Assembly (NCBI GenBank): GCA_037442825.1
Contig: JBBIPN010000001.1
Span: 2,325 to 66,324 of the forward strand
Origin: Sulfurihydrogenibium sp.
Lineage (GTDB): Bacteria; Aquificota; Aquificia; Aquificales; Hydrogenothermaceae
DNA length: 64,000 nt
Reading direction: 5' to 3'
Under the pieces are notes generated by a model. The model saw only the letters and a list, made by a program, of their open reading frames with translations. It was not told the origin of the DNA and made no database searches. The position numbers and the translations under genes were made by a program. Of this stretch, positions 3,329 to 21,564 are shown piece after piece (within the stretch, counting starts at the first letter, position 1; the number at the start of each line of letters is the position of its first letter).

Positions 3329-4624
3329 ATGGGTATGACTGTTACAGAAAAAATAATAGCAGCTCACGCAGGAAAAGATTATGTTGAAGCTGGTGAACTT
3401 GTTACTGTAAAAGTAGATTTAGCTATAGCAAACGATATAACTGCACCTCTTGCTATAAAACAACTTGAAAAATACGGAATAGATAAAATTCACGACCCTA
3501 ATAAAATTGCTCTTGTAATGGATCACTTTTTCCCACCAAAAGATATTTTATCAGCTCAACAAATTAAGATATCAAGAGATTTCGCTAAAAAAATGGGTAT
3601 TAAAAACTACTTTGAAGGTCAAGATAGTGGTGTGATGCACACACTTTTACCAGAAAAAGGTTTTGTAGTTCCAGGAGATCTTGTTATAGGTGCAGATTCC
3701 CATACATGTACATACGGTGGGATAGGAGCATTTTCAACCGGTGTAGGTTCTACAGATATAGCATATATATGGGCTACAGGTGAAACATGGTTGAAAGTGC
3801 CTGAAACTATGAAGTTTGTTTTTTATGGAAAACCTCAAAAATGGGTAGCTGGAAAGGATTTTGTTTTATCTGTAATTGGTAAGATAGGTGTAGATGGTGC
3901 ACTGTACAAAGCTATGGAATACCATGGTGAAGCTATAAAAGCCCTTGATATAGATAACAGATTAACTATTGCAAATATGGCTATTGAAGCAGGTGGAAAA
4001 AATGCAATAATAGAAGCCGATGAAAAAACTATAGAATGGGTAAGAAAAAGAACAAATAGAGAATTTAAAATATACAAAGCAGACCATGATGCAAAGTACT
4101 GCTACGAGTATGAGTTTGATGCAAGTAAAATAGAGCCTGTAGTTGCATGTCCTAACTTACCTTCTAATGTAAAACCAGTAACTGAGGTTGCAGGTACACA
4201 TATAGACCAAGTATTTATAGGTTCTTGTACAAATGGTAGATTGTCAGATTTAAAAATTGCAGCAGCTATACTAAAAGGTAAAAAAGTTCATCCAGAAGTA
4301 AAATGTATAGTAATACCAGCTTCCGACCAAATTTACAAACAAGCTTTACATGAAGGATTACTTGAAATATTAGCAGATGCTGGTTGTTTAATAAGTACTT
4401 CAACTTGTGGACCATGCTTAGGTGGACATATGGGAATATTAGCTGAAGGGGAAGTTTGTTTATCAACATCTAACAGAAACTTTGTAGGAAGAATGGGACA
4501 TCCAAATAGTAAAGTTTATTTATCAAGTCCAGCAGTAGCTGCAGCATCTGCAATACTTGGTAGAATAGCTCATCCAAATGAAGTTGCAAAGTACGAAGAT
4601 GTTGAGACATTGATAACTTTATAA
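3329..4624 (+). CDS. leuC: 3-isopropylmalate dehydratase large subunit (LeuC/homoaconitase family)
   Basis: DSHTCTYG, IGSCTNGR, CGPCLG and STSNRNFVGRMG aconitase-family motifs; ATG at 3329 follows GGAGGT. Confidence 0.88.
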   Translation: MGMTVTEKIIAAHAGKDYVEAGELVTVKVDLAIANDITAPLAIKQLEKYGIDKIHDPNKIALVMDHFFPPKDILSAQQIKISRDFAKKMGIKNYFEGQDSGVMHTLLPEKGFVVPGDLVIGADSHTCTYGGIGAFSTGVGSTDIAYIWATGETWLKVPETMKFVFYGKPQKWVAGKDFVLSVIGKIGVDGALYKAMEYHGEAIKALDIDNRLTIANMAIEAGGKNAIIEADEKTIEWVRKRTNREFKIYKADHDAKYCYEYEFDASKIEPVVACPNLPSNVKPVTEVAGTHIDQVFIGSCTNGRLSDLKIAAAILKGKKVHPEVKCIVIPASDQIYKQALHEGLLEILADAGCLISTSTCGPCLGGHMGILAEGEVCLSTSNRNFVGRMGHPNSKVYLSSPAVAAASAILGRIAHPNEVAKYEDVETLITL

Positions 4625-4639
4625 TCGGAGGTATAAATC

Positions 4640-4843
4640 ATGGCTCTTTGGGATGCAATAGTTAGAATACTTCTTGGTTCTATATTAGTTTTACTTGGTG
4701 TTGAAAAAGGTGGTATTTTTGTTATATCCACAATTTTTGGAGTAGTTTTAATACTAACAGCTATAACTGGATTCTGTTTAATATACAGAATAGCTGGTAT
4801 TTCTTCTAAAGGAGAAGAGAAAGTAGCTTGCAACGAGTGTTAG
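4640..4843 (+). CDS. DUF2892 (YgaP-like) small membrane protein
   Basis: D-x2-VRILLG ... TAITGFCLIY pattern; two TM segments; GGAGGT RBS. Confidence 0.8.
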   Translation: MALWDAIVRILLGSILVLLGVEKGGIFVISTIFGVVLILTAITGFCLIYRIAGISSKGEEKVACNEC

Positions 4844-5235
4844 GTTTAGATATAGGAACAAAAAGAATAGGGGTTGCTTTAAGTGACCCCTTTTTGATAA
4901 TTGCTAAACCTTTAGATTTTATACACAATGATGAAAAAGCTGTTGAAAAGATAAAATCATTAATAAAAGATTATAACGTTTCTACTATTGTAGTAGGTTT
5001 ACCTCTTACATTAAAAGGTAAGGAAGGGGAACAAGCTAAATACACTTATGAATTTACTGAAAAAATAAAAGAAAGTATAGAAAATATAAATATAGTTTTT
5101 ATAGATGAAAGATTTACATCTTCTTTAGCAGAAAAGCAACTTGGCAAAAAGAAAAATAAAAAAGAGAAAATAGATAGTCTCTCTGCTGTCTTTATACTCC
5201 AAACTTACCTTGATAGTTTGCAACTTAAAAAATGA
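4828..5235 (+). CDS. ruvX: Holliday junction resolvase-like / pre-16S rRNA nuclease YqgF
   Basis: LGLDIGTKRIGVALSD, VVGLP, DERFTS and IDSLSAVFILQ motifs. Confidence 0.95.
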   Translation: MQRVLGLDIGTKRIGVALSDPFLIIAKPLDFIHNDEKAVEKIKSLIKDYNVSTIVVGLPLTLKGKEGEQAKYTYEFTEKIKESIENINIVFIDERFTSSLAEKQLGKKKNKKEKIDSLSAVFILQTYLDSLQLKK

Positions 5236-6224
5236 AAAAAATTTTCTTAGCTTTATTTTCAGTAATCTTTACTTTTACTCTTTTAACTGTACTATTAAAT
5301 TATAAACTTTCTTTAAGTAAAGAAATAGAAATTCAAAAAGGATTATCCATCAGTCAGATAGGAGAGAATCTTGAAAATAACAATATTATATTAAATCGGT
5401 ATTTATTTTTAATCTATGCATTAGTAAAAAAAGAGCCATTAAAAGCTGGCATATATGAATTTAAAGGAAAATATTCTATTATTGATGTTTATAACAAAAT
5501 AGCAAAAGGGGAAATTAAATTAAAACTTTTTACGATCGTACCAGGAGATGACCTTATAGATATATCGGAAAAGTTAGAAAAAGAAAATATTATAGAAAAA
5601 AGAGAGTTTTTAGATTACGTTTTTAATAAAGAGAATGTAAAGAAATTCGGACTTGTAGGAGATAGTTTTGAAGGCTATTTTCCTCCAGAAAGCTATGCAG
5701 TAGGAAAAAATGAGACACCAGAAAGCTTAACAAAGAAATTTTTAGAAATATTCAACGAAAGATACTTACTTTATAAAGATTTAATTGAAAAAAAAGATTA
5801 CTCAGATTTTTACAAAAGTAAAATATCTTTTTATGAAGCAATGATTATAGCATCAATGATAGAAAAAGAAACATTTGTAGAAGAAGAAAAACCAACAATT
5901 GCAGGAGTAATATTCAATAGATTAAAAGCAAACATGAGATTGCAAATTGACCCTACAGTAATATATGCTTTAAAACTTACAAACAAATGGAATGGAAAAT
6001 TAGGTAAAAAAGATATAGTTTATAAATCACCATTTAATACATATCAAACTAATGGACTTCCACCTACACCAATATGTAGTTTTTCTTTATCTTCTTTAAA
6101 AGCTGTTTTAAACCCAACTAAAACAAATTACTACTACTATGTTTTATCAAAAGATAAAAGTAAACATATATTTTCTGAAAATTATAAAACACATTTAAAA
6201 AACATAGAAGAAAATTTAAAATAG
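5232..6224 (+). CDS. mltG: Endolytic transglycosylase MltG
   Basis: EGYFPPESY, IASMIEKE, NRLKANMRLQIDPTVIY, SPFNTY and GLPPTPI motifs. Confidence 0.95.
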   Translation: MKKIFLALFSVIFTFTLLTVLLNYKLSLSKEIEIQKGLSISQIGENLENNNIILNRYLFLIYALVKKEPLKAGIYEFKGKYSIIDVYNKIAKGEIKLKLFTIVPGDDLIDISEKLEKENIIEKREFLDYVFNKENVKKFGLVGDSFEGYFPPESYAVGKNETPESLTKKFLEIFNERYLLYKDLIEKKDYSDFYKSKISFYEAMIIASMIEKETFVEEEKPTIAGVIFNRLKANMRLQIDPTVIYALKLTNKWNGKLGKKDIVYKSPFNTYQTNGLPPTPICSFSLSSLKAVLNPTKTNYYYYVLSKDKSKHIFSENYKTHLKNIEENLK

Positions 6225-16781: not shown

Positions 16782-17219
16782 CTAATTATTTTTCATAAAA
16801 TATTCGTTCATATCCATATTTTTATAGTTATCTGATGCGAAATAATCTAAAATTTTAAAGAAATCTTTCTCTTCCCAAGCACCAAATATAGATTTTATTT
16901 TTTTACCATCAGTTTCCAAAAAGTAAAACATAGGTGTTCCTATAAATCCATACTTTTTCCTAAACTCTATACCTTCTTTACTACATTTCCTTAATTTAAC
17001 TGGAATAAAGTCTTTATTTATCAAATCTTCCACTCTTTTACTTTCAAATACATTAAACTCCATAATATCACAGTAATGACAGGAAGGAGAATAAATGTAA
17101 ACAAGAACCAACTTATTTTCTTTCTTTGCCAAATCAAAAGCTTTCTCATAAGAAATCCAGTTTATATCAGCTTTTGCAATCCATATAAACAAAAGTAGAG
17201 GTAAAAATATTTTTCCCAT
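16782..17219 (-). CDS. Periplasmic thioredoxin-family protein (SoxW-like)
   Basis: Signal peptide; CHYC active site; GTPMFYF; located within the sox operon. Confidence 0.8.
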   Translation of the reverse strand: MGKIFLPLLLFIWIAKADINWISYEKAFDLAKKENKLVLVYIYSPSCHYCDIMEFNVFESKRVEDLINKDFIPVKLRKCSKEGIEFRKKYGFIGTPMFYFLETDGKKIKSIFGAWEEKDFFKILDYFASDNYKNMDMNEYFMKNN

Positions 17220-17870: not shown

Positions 17871-19145
17871 TTAACCAAACATCTCTCTCCATAAACCTTT
17901 TGCCCACTCTTTATATCTTTTTACAGATGATTCTTTTCTTACATTATCTTCTCTATGAATAGGTGTAACTGTCTTAGTTACTCTGTCCAACTTAAATGCT
18001 GTTTCTGACATAATAGCTTCTTTATCACTTACCATTGAATAACATATAACCATTAAAAGCTCTTCCTGTCTTGTCTTTTTACCTGTTATTCTTTCATTTA
18101 TAATACTTGCAACTACTTTACCTTGCATATTAGCACCAAAACCGGATTTTGGTAAAAATGTTCTTGCAGAATCACCGATAACAAATACATTTTTAACTTC
18201 TGTTTCAAATGTAAACGTATCTACTTCTATCCATTTCTGTCTATTTTTTAATAAACCTATTTTATAAAGTAAATTTGAAGCTTTCATAGGTGGAATTATA
18301 TTAGCTATATCAAATTTAAAATCTCCATTTGTCGTTTTTACTAATTTTTTAGTTGGATCTATCTCTTTAATAGATGTTCCTGTTATATAATCTGCATAAC
18401 CTTTATACAACTCATAGTAAGCTTTCATAAAACCTTCAGAGTTTACTATAGGTCTTTCATTTTCATCAATAAAATATAAATGTGCTTTCAGATTTCTTGA
18501 TTTTAGATAGTTTAGTAACAATGCAGCCCTTTCATAAGGAGCTGGAGGACATCTGTAAGGATAAGAAGGAACAGTTACTACAATATCTCCACCACTAAAT
18601 TCATTAATTATTTTTTTTAAAAATAGATGTTCACTACCTGGTTTAAATGCAGGCGGATAATTTATAAAAATTTCAGCCTTTGTTTCATCAACATCATAAT
18701 CTATACCTGGTGATAAAACTAAAAAGTCATAAGATACTTTGTATTTATTAGTATAAACAACCTTTTTATCAAAATCTATATTGTCCACTTCATCTTTCAA
18801 TACTTGAATGTTATGTTTTACAGTTAGGTTATTATAAGGAAAACAAAGATTAGAAAATTCCATTATATTTACTAAATATAGATTACTCATAGGACAAGAC
18901 ACAAAAAAGTCATTTTTTTCTATCAAAATAATATCTATATCTTTATTATATTTCCTTAAAGCTACTGCTGTAGTTACACCACCATAACCACCACCAACTA
19001 TAACAACCTTAGCTTTTTTTGGAGAAAGTTTACTTTCTGTAGTTTCTGATTTTACTTCATTAAACGAAAGTAAAGTTGAAGCAGAAAGTAATGCAGATGC
19101 TGTTAAAAAATCCCTCCTACTAACATTTAATTTGTTCTTTGACAT
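17871..19145 (-). CDS. Flavocytochrome c sulfide dehydrogenase flavoprotein paralogue (FccB/SoxF family)
   Basis: Tat motif SRRDFL; VVIVGGGYGG; CPMSN; YRCPPAPYER and ICYS catalytic cysteines. Confidence 0.9.
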   Translation of the reverse strand: MSKNKLNVSRRDFLTASALLSASTLLSFNEVKSETTESKLSPKKAKVVIVGGGYGGVTTAVALRKYNKDIDIILIEKNDFFVSCPMSNLYLVNIMEFSNLCFPYNNLTVKHNIQVLKDEVDNIDFDKKVVYTNKYKVSYDFLVLSPGIDYDVDETKAEIFINYPPAFKPGSEHLFLKKIINEFSGGDIVVTVPSYPYRCPPAPYERAALLLNYLKSRNLKAHLYFIDENERPIVNSEGFMKAYYELYKGYADYITGTSIKEIDPTKKLVKTTNGDFKFDIANIIPPMKASNLLYKIGLLKNRQKWIEVDTFTFETEVKNVFVIGDSARTFLPKSGFGANMQGKVVASIINERITGKKTRQEELLMVICYSMVSDKEAIMSETAFKLDRVTKTVTPIHREDNVRKESSVKRYKEWAKGLWREMFG

Positions 19146-19836
19146 ATTTACTTACCTCCATAGCAACAGATTTTTCTACCATTTCTGTAGCTTTCTCAAA
19201 ATCTCCATACAACTCTATTAAATCTGATTTATATATATCTAAAAACTCTTCAAATTGGCTAGGTCCTACAACAGCTGTTGCATAAATATTTCCATTTTCT
19301 TCTACAAGTTCAACATAGGCTAAAGGTAGTTCTGCTGGACCTTCCATTACTTGACCACCTTTTTTTACATCAAAAACAGACATATGTGCGCAACATTGTA
19401 TAACACCGCTTTTCCCTGTTGTAGCAGATTTTTCCGTAGGTGGATAGTAATTGAAAAGCGAAAAATCTTTATTTGGATAATTCCACTGATGAGGACATAT
19501 TGCACTATAAGCAACGATACTTTTATCTTTTCCTATACCTCCATTAAACTGATAATCTTTACCACTATCTAATTTTATAGTCATTGGTTCAACTTTATCA
19601 CCTAAATTTATAATATAACAAGGTGTAGATTTAAACGGGTAATGGAAAAGTAATACAGTGTATGGTAATAGATCAGAAGTTTTTAAAGGTTCACCATTTT
19701 CTTTTACCAACAATGCTTTTTTATAAGTTTTATAAAGTTCTTTTTCTGCAGCAATTAATTTAGTAAAAAGAGTAGAATCTATCATCATTCCAGCAGCTAT
19801 AGCTGAACATGTCTTAAACAATTTCCTCCTATTCAT
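19120..19836 (-). CDS. Tat-exported Rieske [2Fe-2S] protein
   Basis: NRRKLF Tat motif; AYSAICPHQ (CxH) and QCCAHMSVFD (CxxH) boxes; GPA-x2-PL. Confidence 0.85.
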   Translation of the reverse strand: MNRRKLFKTCSAIAAGMMIDSTLFTKLIAAEKELYKTYKKALLVKENGEPLKTSDLLPYTVLLFHYPFKSTPCYIINLGDKVEPMTIKLDSGKDYQFNGGIGKDKSIVAYSAICPHQWNYPNKDFSLFNYYPPTEKSATTGKSGVIQCCAHMSVFDVKKGGQVMEGPAELPLAYVELVEENGNIYATAVVGPSQFEEFLDIYKSDLIELYGDFEKATEMVEKSVAMEVSKYVKEQIKC

Positions 19837-19863
19837 CTTAGAACCTCCTATATATATAAAAAA

Positions 19864-19883
19864 AGGGGGCTAAAAAGCCCCCT
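19864..19883 (-). terminator. Intrinsic terminator after fccB
   Basis: AGGGGGC-taaaaa-GCCCCCT followed by a U-tract on the minus strand. Confidence 0.8.
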
Positions 19884-19916
19884 CTCATTAAACTATGTAT
19901 TATAGAATTATTTATA

Positions 19917-21224
19917 TTATCCTCTTCCCCATGTATCTGCTACTATATTATCATACCAAACTTGAGCATAAATCGCCTCTTTTTCTCTGAACTTTTCATC
20001 TGCACCTGCTGGACTAACACCACCTGCACCTTTAACAGCTTCTATTCCTTTTTCTGAAACATTATAAACAGCTGCTACAGAAATGCCATAGGTTGGAGAT
20101 ACTAAACTATAACAAGTGTTTACGACTGTTGTATTTTCTGGTTCTTTTCCGTTTATTTGAGATACAATAGCTGCTGCGGCCACTTTACCATGGCTATTAG
20201 CTGAGAATCCTGATTTAGGCATTATAGTATTAGAAGAGTCACCAATTACAAATACATCTTTAGCAACTTTTGACTCAAATGTTTTTGGATTTATATCTGC
20301 CCAACCTTTTTCATTAGCAAGTTTTGAAGATGAAATTATATCTGCTGCTTTTTGATGTGGTATAAAGTTTATAACATCACCTTTAATTTTTTCACCAGAA
20401 GATGTAACTACAACTTTTTCTTTAGGATCTATTTTTATAACTTTACCACCAACATCCGATGAAACCCATTCAACCATATCTCCATATAGAGCACTCCAGC
20501 CTTCCATAAAAAGCTTTTGTTTAGGAAAGTTATTTTTAGCATCTAAAAGTATTATTTTTGACTTTGGTTTATTATTTTTAAGATACCAAGCCACTAAAGA
20601 AGCTCTTTCGTATGGCCCAGGTGGACATCTGTATGGCATAGGTGGAATAACCATTATAAATGTACCACCATCTGGCATAGCTTCTAACTGTTTTCTAAGT
20701 AACAATGTTTGTGGTCCAGCTTTCCATGCATGTGGTATTTCTTCAGCCATTTGAGGTGTAGCACCTTCTACTGCTTCATATTTGAAGCTTATACCAGGTG
20801 ATAGTACAAGTTTATCATACTTAACTTTTTTACCATCAGACAGTATTACATGTTTAGCAGTTGTGTCGATTTCTTGAACATGACCTTTTATAAAGTTGAC
20901 TCCGTACTTACCTTTTAGAATGGAATAATCTACTTCTAAATCTTCAATTTTCTTAAATCCACCGATAACTGTGTTACTAAATGGACATGTATAGTACTTG
21001 TCAGAACCTTCAATGATAGTAACAGCAATGTCTTTATCGAATATTTTTATATACTTAGCAACTGTTGAACCACCAAATCCACCACCTACTACTACAACAT
21101 GAGCTTTCCCTTTTATTTCATATTCAGAAACTTTTTGAGACATAGAAAAAGCTTTATCTACTCCTGCTACTGTTGCTACACCTACTAAACCCGTTAATTT
21201 CAATAAATCTCTTCTTGTAATCAT
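19917..21224 (-). CDS. fccB: Flavocytochrome c sulfide dehydrogenase flavoprotein subunit
   Basis: Tat motif TRRDLL; GGGFGG; TCPFSN; YRCPPGPYER; PKSGFSANSHGK; NTCYS. Confidence 0.93.
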   Translation of the reverse strand: MITRRDLLKLTGLVGVATVAGVDKAFSMSQKVSEYEIKGKAHVVVVGGGFGGSTVAKYIKIFDKDIAVTIIEGSDKYYTCPFSNTVIGGFKKIEDLEVDYSILKGKYGVNFIKGHVQEIDTTAKHVILSDGKKVKYDKLVLSPGISFKYEAVEGATPQMAEEIPHAWKAGPQTLLLRKQLEAMPDGGTFIMVIPPMPYRCPPGPYERASLVAWYLKNNKPKSKIILLDAKNNFPKQKLFMEGWSALYGDMVEWVSSDVGGKVIKIDPKEKVVVTSSGEKIKGDVINFIPHQKAADIISSSKLANEKGWADINPKTFESKVAKDVFVIGDSSNTIMPKSGFSANSHGKVAAAAIVSQINGKEPENTTVVNTCYSLVSPTYGISVAAVYNVSEKGIEAVKGAGGVSPAGADEKFREKEAIYAQVWYDNIVADTWGRG

Positions 21225-21236
21225 CTTATCTCCTCC

Positions 21237-21530
21237 TTATTTTAATGTTGATAGATACTCTGCTACTTTTTTGATTTCTTCATCTGTATAACCTTTTGCA
21301 AGACGGTTCATTACGGTACCTTTAAGTTTGCCTTCCTTATACTGAAGCAATGTTTTTTCAATAACTGCTGCTGGTTTTCCTGCAATAGAATACCCTTTCT
21401 TATTTGTAGTTTTACCTTCTGGGCCATGACAACCAAAACAAGTAGCAGCAATAACTTTTACAGATTCTACAGCGTTAGCTGTAAATGTAAAACACAAGGC
21501 CAAGACTCCTGCGGTTAAAAACCTCTTCAT
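21237..21530 (-). CDS. fccA: Monohaem c-type cytochrome subunit of flavocytochrome c
   Basis: Signal peptide; AATCFGCHG; GTVMNRLAKGY; directly upstream of fccB; ATG at 21530 follows GGAGG. Confidence 0.85.
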   Translation of the reverse strand: MKRFLTAGVLALCFTFTANAVESVKVIAATCFGCHGPEGKTTNKKGYSIAGKPAAVIEKTLLQYKEGKLKGTVMNRLAKGYTDEEIKKVAEYLSTLK

Positions 21531-21564
21531 TTTTAAACCTCCAAAAATGTTTTTTTCCATGGAA

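Follow-up and report, generated by a model that had tools for sequence, protein, structure and literature searches.

A Rieske protein translationally coupled to a flavoprotein in Sulfurihydrogenibium: a candidate cytochrome-free variant of flavocytochrome c sulfide dehydrogenase

Introduction

Flavocytochrome c sulfide dehydrogenase (FCSD) is the textbook periplasmic sulfide-oxidizing enzyme and, to our knowledge, the exit of electrons from its flavoprotein FccB is always drawn as the haem subunit, FccA. A stretch of 64,000 nucleotides from Sulfurihydrogenibium sp. (GenBank assembly GCA_037442825.1, contig JBBIPN010000001.1, positions 2,325 to 66,324; hereafter the window) carries, besides a canonical fccAB, a second flavoprotein gene (fccB2) that overlaps a gene encoding a Rieske iron-sulfur protein. 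This locus raises the question of which partner receives the electrons of such a flavoprotein. According to the present analysis, FccB2 and the Rieske protein probably make up a periplasmic flavoprotein:Rieske sulfide (or polysulfide) dehydrogenase, i.e., an FCSD variant with an AioB-like Rieske protein in place of the haem subunit, where electrons would pass from flavin adenine dinucleotide (FAD) to the Rieske cluster and then to a cytochrome c. If true, this would be a new flavin-to-Rieske electron-transfer architecture; it would change the reading of “fccB” matches in metagenomes and help explain why several FccB paralogs are kept per organism. The window is a natural case for this question, since it has the canonical FccAB next to the Rieske-linked form, with a conserved hairpin between them.

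Results and discussion

The Rieske-fccB2 pair and its conservation in Aquificota

The original prediction, made from the sequence, described an FccB with a twin-arginine translocation (Tat) signal and no cytochrome gene of its own, overlapping a Tat-type Rieske gene by 26 nt, with its ribosome-binding site (RBS, GGAGGT) inside the 3′ end of the latter. The overlap was recovered from the open reading frames (ORFs) and the raw sequence, which also confirmed the RBS (Table 1). The neighboring genes are consistent with the rest of the description: fccB2 is preceded by the Rieske gene and followed, beyond a separate sigma-54 promoter, by soxX, and no c-type cytochrome subunit gene adjoins it, the nearby fccA going with the canonical fccB1.

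The synteny survey proposed as a check of this description was then run. The Rieske gene adjoined an FccB2 ortholog in all of the 12 related loci. Among 41 related genomes, the Rieske gene was found in 17 and neither gene in 24; an FccB2 ortholog (56–89% identity) lies directly downstream of the Rieske gene in 16 of the 17 Rieske-bearing genomes, and every FccB2 ortholog of this set (16/16) sits beside a Rieske gene. Besides, the 26-nt overlap was exact in 13/13 Aquificota pairs, down to about 50% protein identity. Because the adjacency (12/12 loci) and the overlap (13/13 pairs) recur in this way, the arrangement is not due to chance. Down to 48% identity, all FccB2 orthologs bear Aquificota names; below this, the score falls sharply from 457 to 308 bits. 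In the Aquificaceae, the clusters contain no cytochrome c gene and have no sox gene nearby. The proposal of a two-subunit periplasmic flavoprotein/Rieske unit fits this adjacency, coupling and co-occurrence, as well as the Tat signals of both proteins and the position of FccB2 outside the canonical FccB clade (see below).

The 17th Rieske-bearing genome, that of Thermocrinis albus, has the flavoprotein upstream of the Rieske gene only. Its locus (L014, 4677–6951) reads upstream flavoprotein-Rieske, without FccB2, and is followed only by an ORF of 92 amino acids. Hence, the Rieske gene survives the loss of FccB2. Indeed, it persists with either flavoprotein alone: the upstream one in T. albus, FccB2 in the window and in one further locus (L042).

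This gene order is not new. The order cyt c-dhsU1-Rieske-dhsU2-soxXYZAB was described for LSSB in 2012 (PMC3504083), and this cluster matches the window gene for gene; the ‘dhsU’ cluster of Aquifex aeolicus shows the same gene family and order. Sulfide dehydrogenase activity was obtained for DhsU1, the canonical FccB1 type and the only one of the two assayed (PMC3504083). In the dhsU papers, DhsU is taken as an FccB-like sulfide dehydrogenase and the Rieske protein is given no role. This candidate FCSD variant is real and conserved as a gene pair.

FccB2 is an FCSD-type flavoprotein

FccB2 contains the FAD-binding Rossmann domains and the FCSD central domain, with Pfam scores of 63.8 bits for Pyr_redox_2 (PF07992) and 82.8 bits, for a cut-off of 27, for FCSD_central (PF21706). 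The C-terminal interface domain FCSD-flav_bind (PF09242) reached 23.9 bits against a cut-off of 26; a precomputed match to it is carried by many FccB2 orthologs, and the fold of FccB2 aligns over about 400 columns. The closest solved structures are the FCSD flavoprotein chains 5N1T (5n1t_A, E 6.5e-55), 1FCD and 3VRD. This is further illustrated by the AlphaFold2 (AF2) model (pLDDT 86.9), for which Foldseek gave a TMt of 0.88–0.89 to 5N1T_A, 3VRD_B and 1FCD_A, whereas the match to sulfide:quinone reductases was clearly poorer (TMt about 0.70). With the adjoining FccB1, FccB2 shares only about 33% identity.

As anticipated in the original prediction, both catalytic cysteines are kept (Cys199 and Cys368), and the alignment to 5N1T and 1FCD shows that the FAD-linking cysteine (Cys84) is kept as well. 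These three residues are invariant over 104 FccB-like sequences from all three clades described below. A fourth cysteine, Cys101 (18843–18845), is invariant in the FccB2 clade only; its position is occupied by T/E/K or A/S/M in canonical FccB and in the upstream clade. Altogether, FccB2 has in common with the FccAB flavoproteins of Allochromatium vinosum (1FCD), Thermochromatium tepidum (3VRD) and Thioalkalivibrio paradoxus (5N1T) the three-domain fold, the FAD-binding Cys, the redox Cys pair, the PYER motif, the Tat signal and a sulfur-oxidation neighborhood. It differs from them by the translationally coupled Rieske gene in place of an own cytochrome gene, by its separate clade, by an FCSD-flav_bind score below the Pfam cut-off and by the extra invariant Cys101. 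SoxF resembles FccB2 in being an FccB-family flavoprotein encoded beside sox genes and lacking an obligatory cytochrome partner; we know of no Rieske partner described for it.

The Rieske protein is AioB-like

The Rieske protein has the CxH…CxxH ligand boxes on a Rieske fold, as indicated by the Pfam Rieske domain (PF00355, 21.6 bits for a cut-off of 20.3), the invariant ligands and an AF2 model of good quality (pLDDT 87.8, pTM 0.83). Its best match in both sequence and fold is AioB (NT-26, 4AAY/5NQD; A. faecalis, 1G8K), the Foldseek TMt being 0.75–0.81 for AioB subunits, followed by Sulfolobus SoxF. AioB and the present protein are both Tat-exported Rieske subunits and, in the role predicted here, both would form the electron exit of a periplasmic oxidoreductase toward cytochrome c. 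The Rieske protein departs from AioB in three respects: the distance from box I to box II is 31 residues, corresponding to an insert of about 15 residues in the alignment; the C-terminus is extended by about 45 residues, modelled with confidence and ending in an invariant cysteine; and the adjoining partner is a flavoprotein, with no AioA nearby.

Three other identities were considered for this protein. AioB itself (TIGR02694) was rejected with 51.5 bits for an NCBIfam cut-off of 95.65, and also on its neighbors, as no ORF for the AioA molybdopterin subunit was found next to the Rieske gene, whether in the window or among the fetched loci. SoxL2 (TIGR03171) was rejected with 75.6 bits for an NCBIfam cut-off of 582.1. 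A bc1/b6f Rieske subunit was rejected since the protein lacks the N-terminal membrane anchor and no cytochrome b gene is nearby. A separate, weakly similar Rieske gene is found elsewhere in the genome (C31).

Rieske alignments were built at three depths, A1 (Aquificota), A3 (mid-diversity) and A2 (widest). The twin-arginine pair of the signal peptide is invariant in A1 and A3 and nearly so in A2. Because the hydrophobic stretch that follows is short (only about 11 residues before Asp20) and then leads to an AxA-like site (LIAA/E, the slash marking the cut), the N-terminus appears from its sequence to be a cleavable signal and not a membrane anchor. Within it, Cys10 (19807–19809; RRxFxKxC, two residues past the Lys of the Tat motif) never varies in Aquificota and is found in most of the wider family, though the signal peptide is presumably cleaved.

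Cluster ligands, redox potential and additional cysteines

Cys114 and His116 are invariant in A1, A2 and A3. Cys148 is invariant too, and Cys149, His151 and Ser153 are invariant in Aquificota. The second Cys of the CTHLGC/CPCH pattern is absent, so the inter-loop disulfide of the canonical high-potential class is missing; the raw sequence therefore agrees with the original prediction that the boxes, CPHQWN and CCAHMS, are atypical. The further step, from a missing disulfide to a low potential, did not hold. In bc1-type Rieske proteins, removal of the disulfide lowers the midpoint potential (Em), as relayed in PMC3758308. In AioB, the nearest relative, no correlation between the disulfide and Em is seen: the NT-26 protein, naturally devoid of it, has an Em of +225 mV, the A. 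faecalis protein, which possesses it, +130/160 mV, and introduction of the bridge into NT-26 AioB decreased Em by 35 mV (PMC3758308). Hence, the low-potential argument is not transferable to the present Rieske protein. The latter shares with NT-26 AioB the lack of the disulfide and the HxS-V-F context of the box, CCAHMSVFD aligning with CPGHFSVFD, with the cluster-hydrogen-bonding Ser (Ser153) and the Phe kept.

Two further cysteines, Cys149 and the C-terminal Cys238 (invariant in Aquificota), may stand in for the missing pair. Among 190 Rieske-family sequences, 178 have both Cys149 and the terminal Cys, seven have neither and five have Cys149 only; the terminal Cys was never found without Cys149. 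This pattern corresponds to only about three independent losses, and the phylogenetically corrected test yielded two to three independent contrasts, all concordant and too few for significance. The co-occurrence of the two residues points to a disulfide that replaces the canonical one or to a function in common, and they are a probable substitute cysteine pair. In the same 190 sequences, His151 is replaced in 29, mostly by Glu (18) or Asp (8), giving CCSExS boxes in which Cys-x-His and Cys148 are kept (e.g., P0068, P0069, P0074, and P0080 in A2). Such boxes suggest that this subfamily has another cluster ligation, or no cluster.

A widespread module with three flavoprotein clades

The profile search with the Rieske family matched 574 representative clusters, of which 97 reached E ≤ 1e-30. 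The locus search, which used A3, returned 80 loci from Aquificota, Thiobacillaceae, Campylobacterales, Gallionellaceae, Thiomonas, Thiomicrorhabdus, Hyphomicrobiales, Eremiobacterota and others. In about 76 of these 80 loci, the Rieske gene directly follows an FccB-like gene of the same strand; only the downstream flavoprotein is present in two, and the Rieske gene stands alone in two others (L090 and L101). From the clustering of the neighboring ORFs, only the Rieske and FccB-like families are conserved together. The pair is thus not the local oddity that it had seemed but part of a widespread module, in which the gene for the usual flavoprotein partner precedes the Rieske gene. No natural flavoprotein-Rieske fusion was found among the longer family matches, the long ones being unrelated chimeric gene calls.

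A maximum-likelihood tree of 106 FccB-like proteins separated three clades, with the following supports from the Shimodaira-Hasegawa-like approximate likelihood ratio test (SH-aLRT), the branching order among the three being left unresolved by the tree: the canonical FccB clade with 1FCD, 5N1T and FccB1 of the window (100%), the upstream-of-Rieske clade with 74 rows from many phyla (96%), and the downstream-of-Rieske clade, i.e., FccB2, with 21 rows, all from Aquificota (99%). FccB2 consequently falls outside the clade of characterized FccB, in a clade of its own. Both Rieske-linked clades share residues unlike those of canonical FccB, e.g., E172-H173 instead of Q-T. Three arrangements were observed: upstream flavoprotein-Rieske in most lineages, upstream flavoprotein-Rieske-FccB2 in most Aquificaceae, and Rieske-FccB2 in the window, where fccAB occupies the upstream slot, and in L042. 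FccB2 forms an extra, Aquificota-only clade, and in the window genome the canonical fccAB has replaced the usual upstream partner. As this genome contains no upstream-clade flavoprotein anywhere, FccB2 is the only cytochrome-less candidate partner of the Rieske protein here.

Some loci depart from these arrangements. In a Sulfurihydrogenibium genome (G008; L020, 6051–8348), the upstream flavoprotein gene appears to be split into parts of 286 and 169 amino acids by an unrelated ORF of 278 amino acids, probably an insertion that disrupted the gene. Extra upstream-clade paralogs without a Rieske neighbor were found in two genomes (L029 of G031, 4155–5456; L030 of G039, 4045–5349), each adjoining genes for a sigma-54 regulator and a sensor kinase.

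Proposed electron path and alternative readings

On the favored reading, both proteins, given their twin-arginine signals, would be folded and loaded with cofactors in the cytoplasm before they cross the membrane by Tat. From the FCSD residues and fold, sulfide would attack the Cys199-Cys368 disulfide beside the FAD, itself probably covalently bound at Cys84; two electrons would enter the flavin and the sulfur would be released as polysulfide or S0. From the reduced flavin, electrons would then move singly to the Rieske cluster held by Cys114, His116, Cys148 and His151, a step suggested by the synteny and the translational coupling. By analogy with AioAB, the potential of this cluster would probably lie in the AioB range, above 0 mV, and the electrons would go on to a soluble c-type cytochrome and a terminal oxidase. 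Several small c-type cytochromes encoded elsewhere in the genome are possible acceptors. Such a second, cytochrome-free FCSD form, with an AioB-like Rieske protein as the sole conserved neighbor of the flavoprotein in many sulfur oxidizers, would concern environmentally important organisms (Aquificota, Thiobacillus, Thiomonas, Gallionellaceae and Campylobacterales).

Several points weigh against it. FccA, whose gene is only 1.4 kb distant, might in principle serve FccB2 as well. The Pfam margin of the Rieske domain is narrow, and since His151 is replaced in about one seventh of the wider family, cluster chemistry may vary there, while Aquificota keep the His. A strong hairpin with a T-run stands directly upstream of the Rieske gene, and no convincing promoter was found for the pair. 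Attempts to express DhsU2 in E. coli failed (PMC3504083). Finally, the searchable full-text literature, which is thin on subscription journals, returned no biochemical study of a flavoprotein-Rieske sulfide dehydrogenase, be it of the complex, its substrate or its potential.

Among the alternatives, the one that survives best, though it is unlikely, is that the pair acts on sulfur bound to Sox proteins and not on free sulfide, either by oxidation or release of the SoxY sulfane sulfur or by a SoxF-like reactivation of SoxYZ. Such a role would agree with the position of the pair directly upstream of soxX-trx-soxYZAB in all Hydrogenothermaceae loci, and with sox clusters that are devoid of soxCD (PMC4912159). 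However, fccB2 is separated from soxX by the sigma-54 promoter of the latter, and the module lies away from sox in Aquificaceae and in nearly all other phyla, SoxY clustering with it in only 7 of the 80 loci, all from Hydrogenothermaceae.

It is less likely still that the two proteins are no direct partners, FccB2 using FccA or another cytochrome, or acting as a SoxF-like monomer, and the Rieske protein being an independent periplasmic carrier that merely shares its regulation. The proximity of fccA, the two Rieske genes without a flavoprotein neighbor (L090 and L101) and the two upstream-clade flavoproteins without a Rieske neighbor (L029 and L030) speak for this reading, as does the existence of monomeric FccB-type flavoproteins, namely SoxF as summarized in PMC3504083. 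It is opposed by the exclusive conservation of the Rieske and flavoprotein families across phyla, by the 26-nt coupling and the constant adjacency of FccB2 orthologs to a Rieske gene, and by the lack of any cytochrome gene in the Aquificaceae clusters.

A more speculative extension of the flavoprotein:Rieske dehydrogenase, to which we give little credit at present, concerns the C-terminal extension of the Rieske protein. Together with Cys149, Cys238 might make it a redox-active or sulfur-carrying arm, comparable to SoxY or DsrC, that would reach the active site of the flavoprotein. One protein would then both deliver the sulfur substrate and take up the electrons and, in Aquificaceae, it might serve the upstream and the downstream flavoproteins in a three-protein relay.

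Neither polysulfide reduction nor SoxYZ reactivation, both named in the original prediction, found direct support here. The reductive direction, in which the Rieske protein would feed a periplasmic reductase of polysulfide or sulfur, is very improbable: the S0/HS– couple lies at about –270 mV and could not be driven by a cluster of positive potential such as that of AioB, which makes this operation thermodynamically unlikely if the cluster is AioB-like, and while the absent disulfide would favor it by the bc1-type rule, the AioB potentials quoted above are positive with or without the bridge, Ser153 is conserved, and the surrounding genes and host lineages are all those of sulfur oxidizers.

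Locus organization and transcription

Table 1. Features of the Rieske-fccB2 locus, in coordinates of the window.
Feature	Position	Strand	Description
Rieske-like gene	19120–19836	–	ORF, 238 amino acids, N-terminus MNRRKLFK; Tat-signal, AioB-like [2Fe-2S] protein
Twin-arginine R3 R4	19825–19830	–	Rieske signal peptide
Rieske box I, CPHQWN	19480–19497	–	Residues 114–119; ligands Cys114 and His116; aligns with the AioB CPHK box
Rieske box II, CCAHMS	19378–19395	–	Residues 148–153; ligands Cys148 and His151; extra Cys149; Ser153
Cys238	19123–19125	–	C-terminal residue of the Rieske protein
fccB2	17871–19145	–	ORF, 424 amino acids, N-terminal region …NVSRRDFL; Tat-signal FCSD-type flavoprotein
RBS of fccB2, GGAGGT	19154–19159	–	Inside the Rieske coding sequence; 8 nt before the ATG at 19145
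Rieske 3′ end/fccB2 5′ end overlap	19120–19145	–	26 nt, translational coupling
Cys84 of FccB2	18894–18896	–	Equivalent of the FCSD FAD-thioether Cys; aligns with TCP/TCY of 5N1T and 1FCD
Cys199 of FccB2	18549–18551	–	In RCPPAPYER; first Cys of the redox-active pair, aligned with FCSD
Cys368 of FccB2	18042–18044	–	In ICYS; second Cys of the redox-active pair, aligned with FCSD
Sigma-54 promoter TGGCATAAAATTTGCT	17791		Between fccB2 and soxX
soxX, thioredoxin-like gene, soxY, soxZ, soxA, soxB		–	Downstream of fccB2, in this order
Hairpin	19861–19886	–	GC-rich, 11-pair stem, then T-run; between fccB1 and the Rieske gene; terminator or attenuator
fccB1, canonical	19917–21224	–	ORF and domain search; groups with 1FCD and 5N1T
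fccA, canonical	21237–21560	–	ORF and domain search
fccA-fccB1 block	19917–21560	–	Fills the slot held elsewhere by the Rieske-linked upstream flavoprotein
Sigma-54 regulator and kinase		–	Block upstream of fccA

A hairpin followed by a T-run was found at the equivalent place in six related loci (L031, L032, L033, L035, L022, and L015). The stem sequences differ among them, and the structure is kept whether the upstream gene is fccB1 or the other type of flavoprotein. It may set the ratio of expression between the two enzymes. Between fccB1 and the Rieske gene, neither a convincing sigma-54 nor a convincing sigma-70 promoter was detected. Given the hairpin and this lack of a convincing promoter downstream of it, transcription of Rieske-fccB2 may come from the fccA promoter by partial read-through. 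In L042, the Rieske gene is immediately preceded by a sigma-54 promoter. The dhsU promoter of A. aeolicus is sigma-54-dependent (PMC10083551), and its exact string was absent from the fetched loci. Sigma-54 regulators or promoters likewise flank many of the loci studied here; a sigma-54 regulator with a kinase accompanies the Rieske/FccB-like module in about 20 of them, which fits the dependence reported for A. aeolicus. Transcripts of dhsU2, the FccB2 ortholog, were detected in situ for a Sulfurihydrogenibium-like mat organism, in which the genes follow the same order (PMC4912159, PMC3504083).

Farther downstream, the gene between soxX and soxY (16782–17219) encodes an exported DsbH/thioredoxin-like protein, and this gene is kept in all of the Hydrogenothermaceae sox clusters seen.

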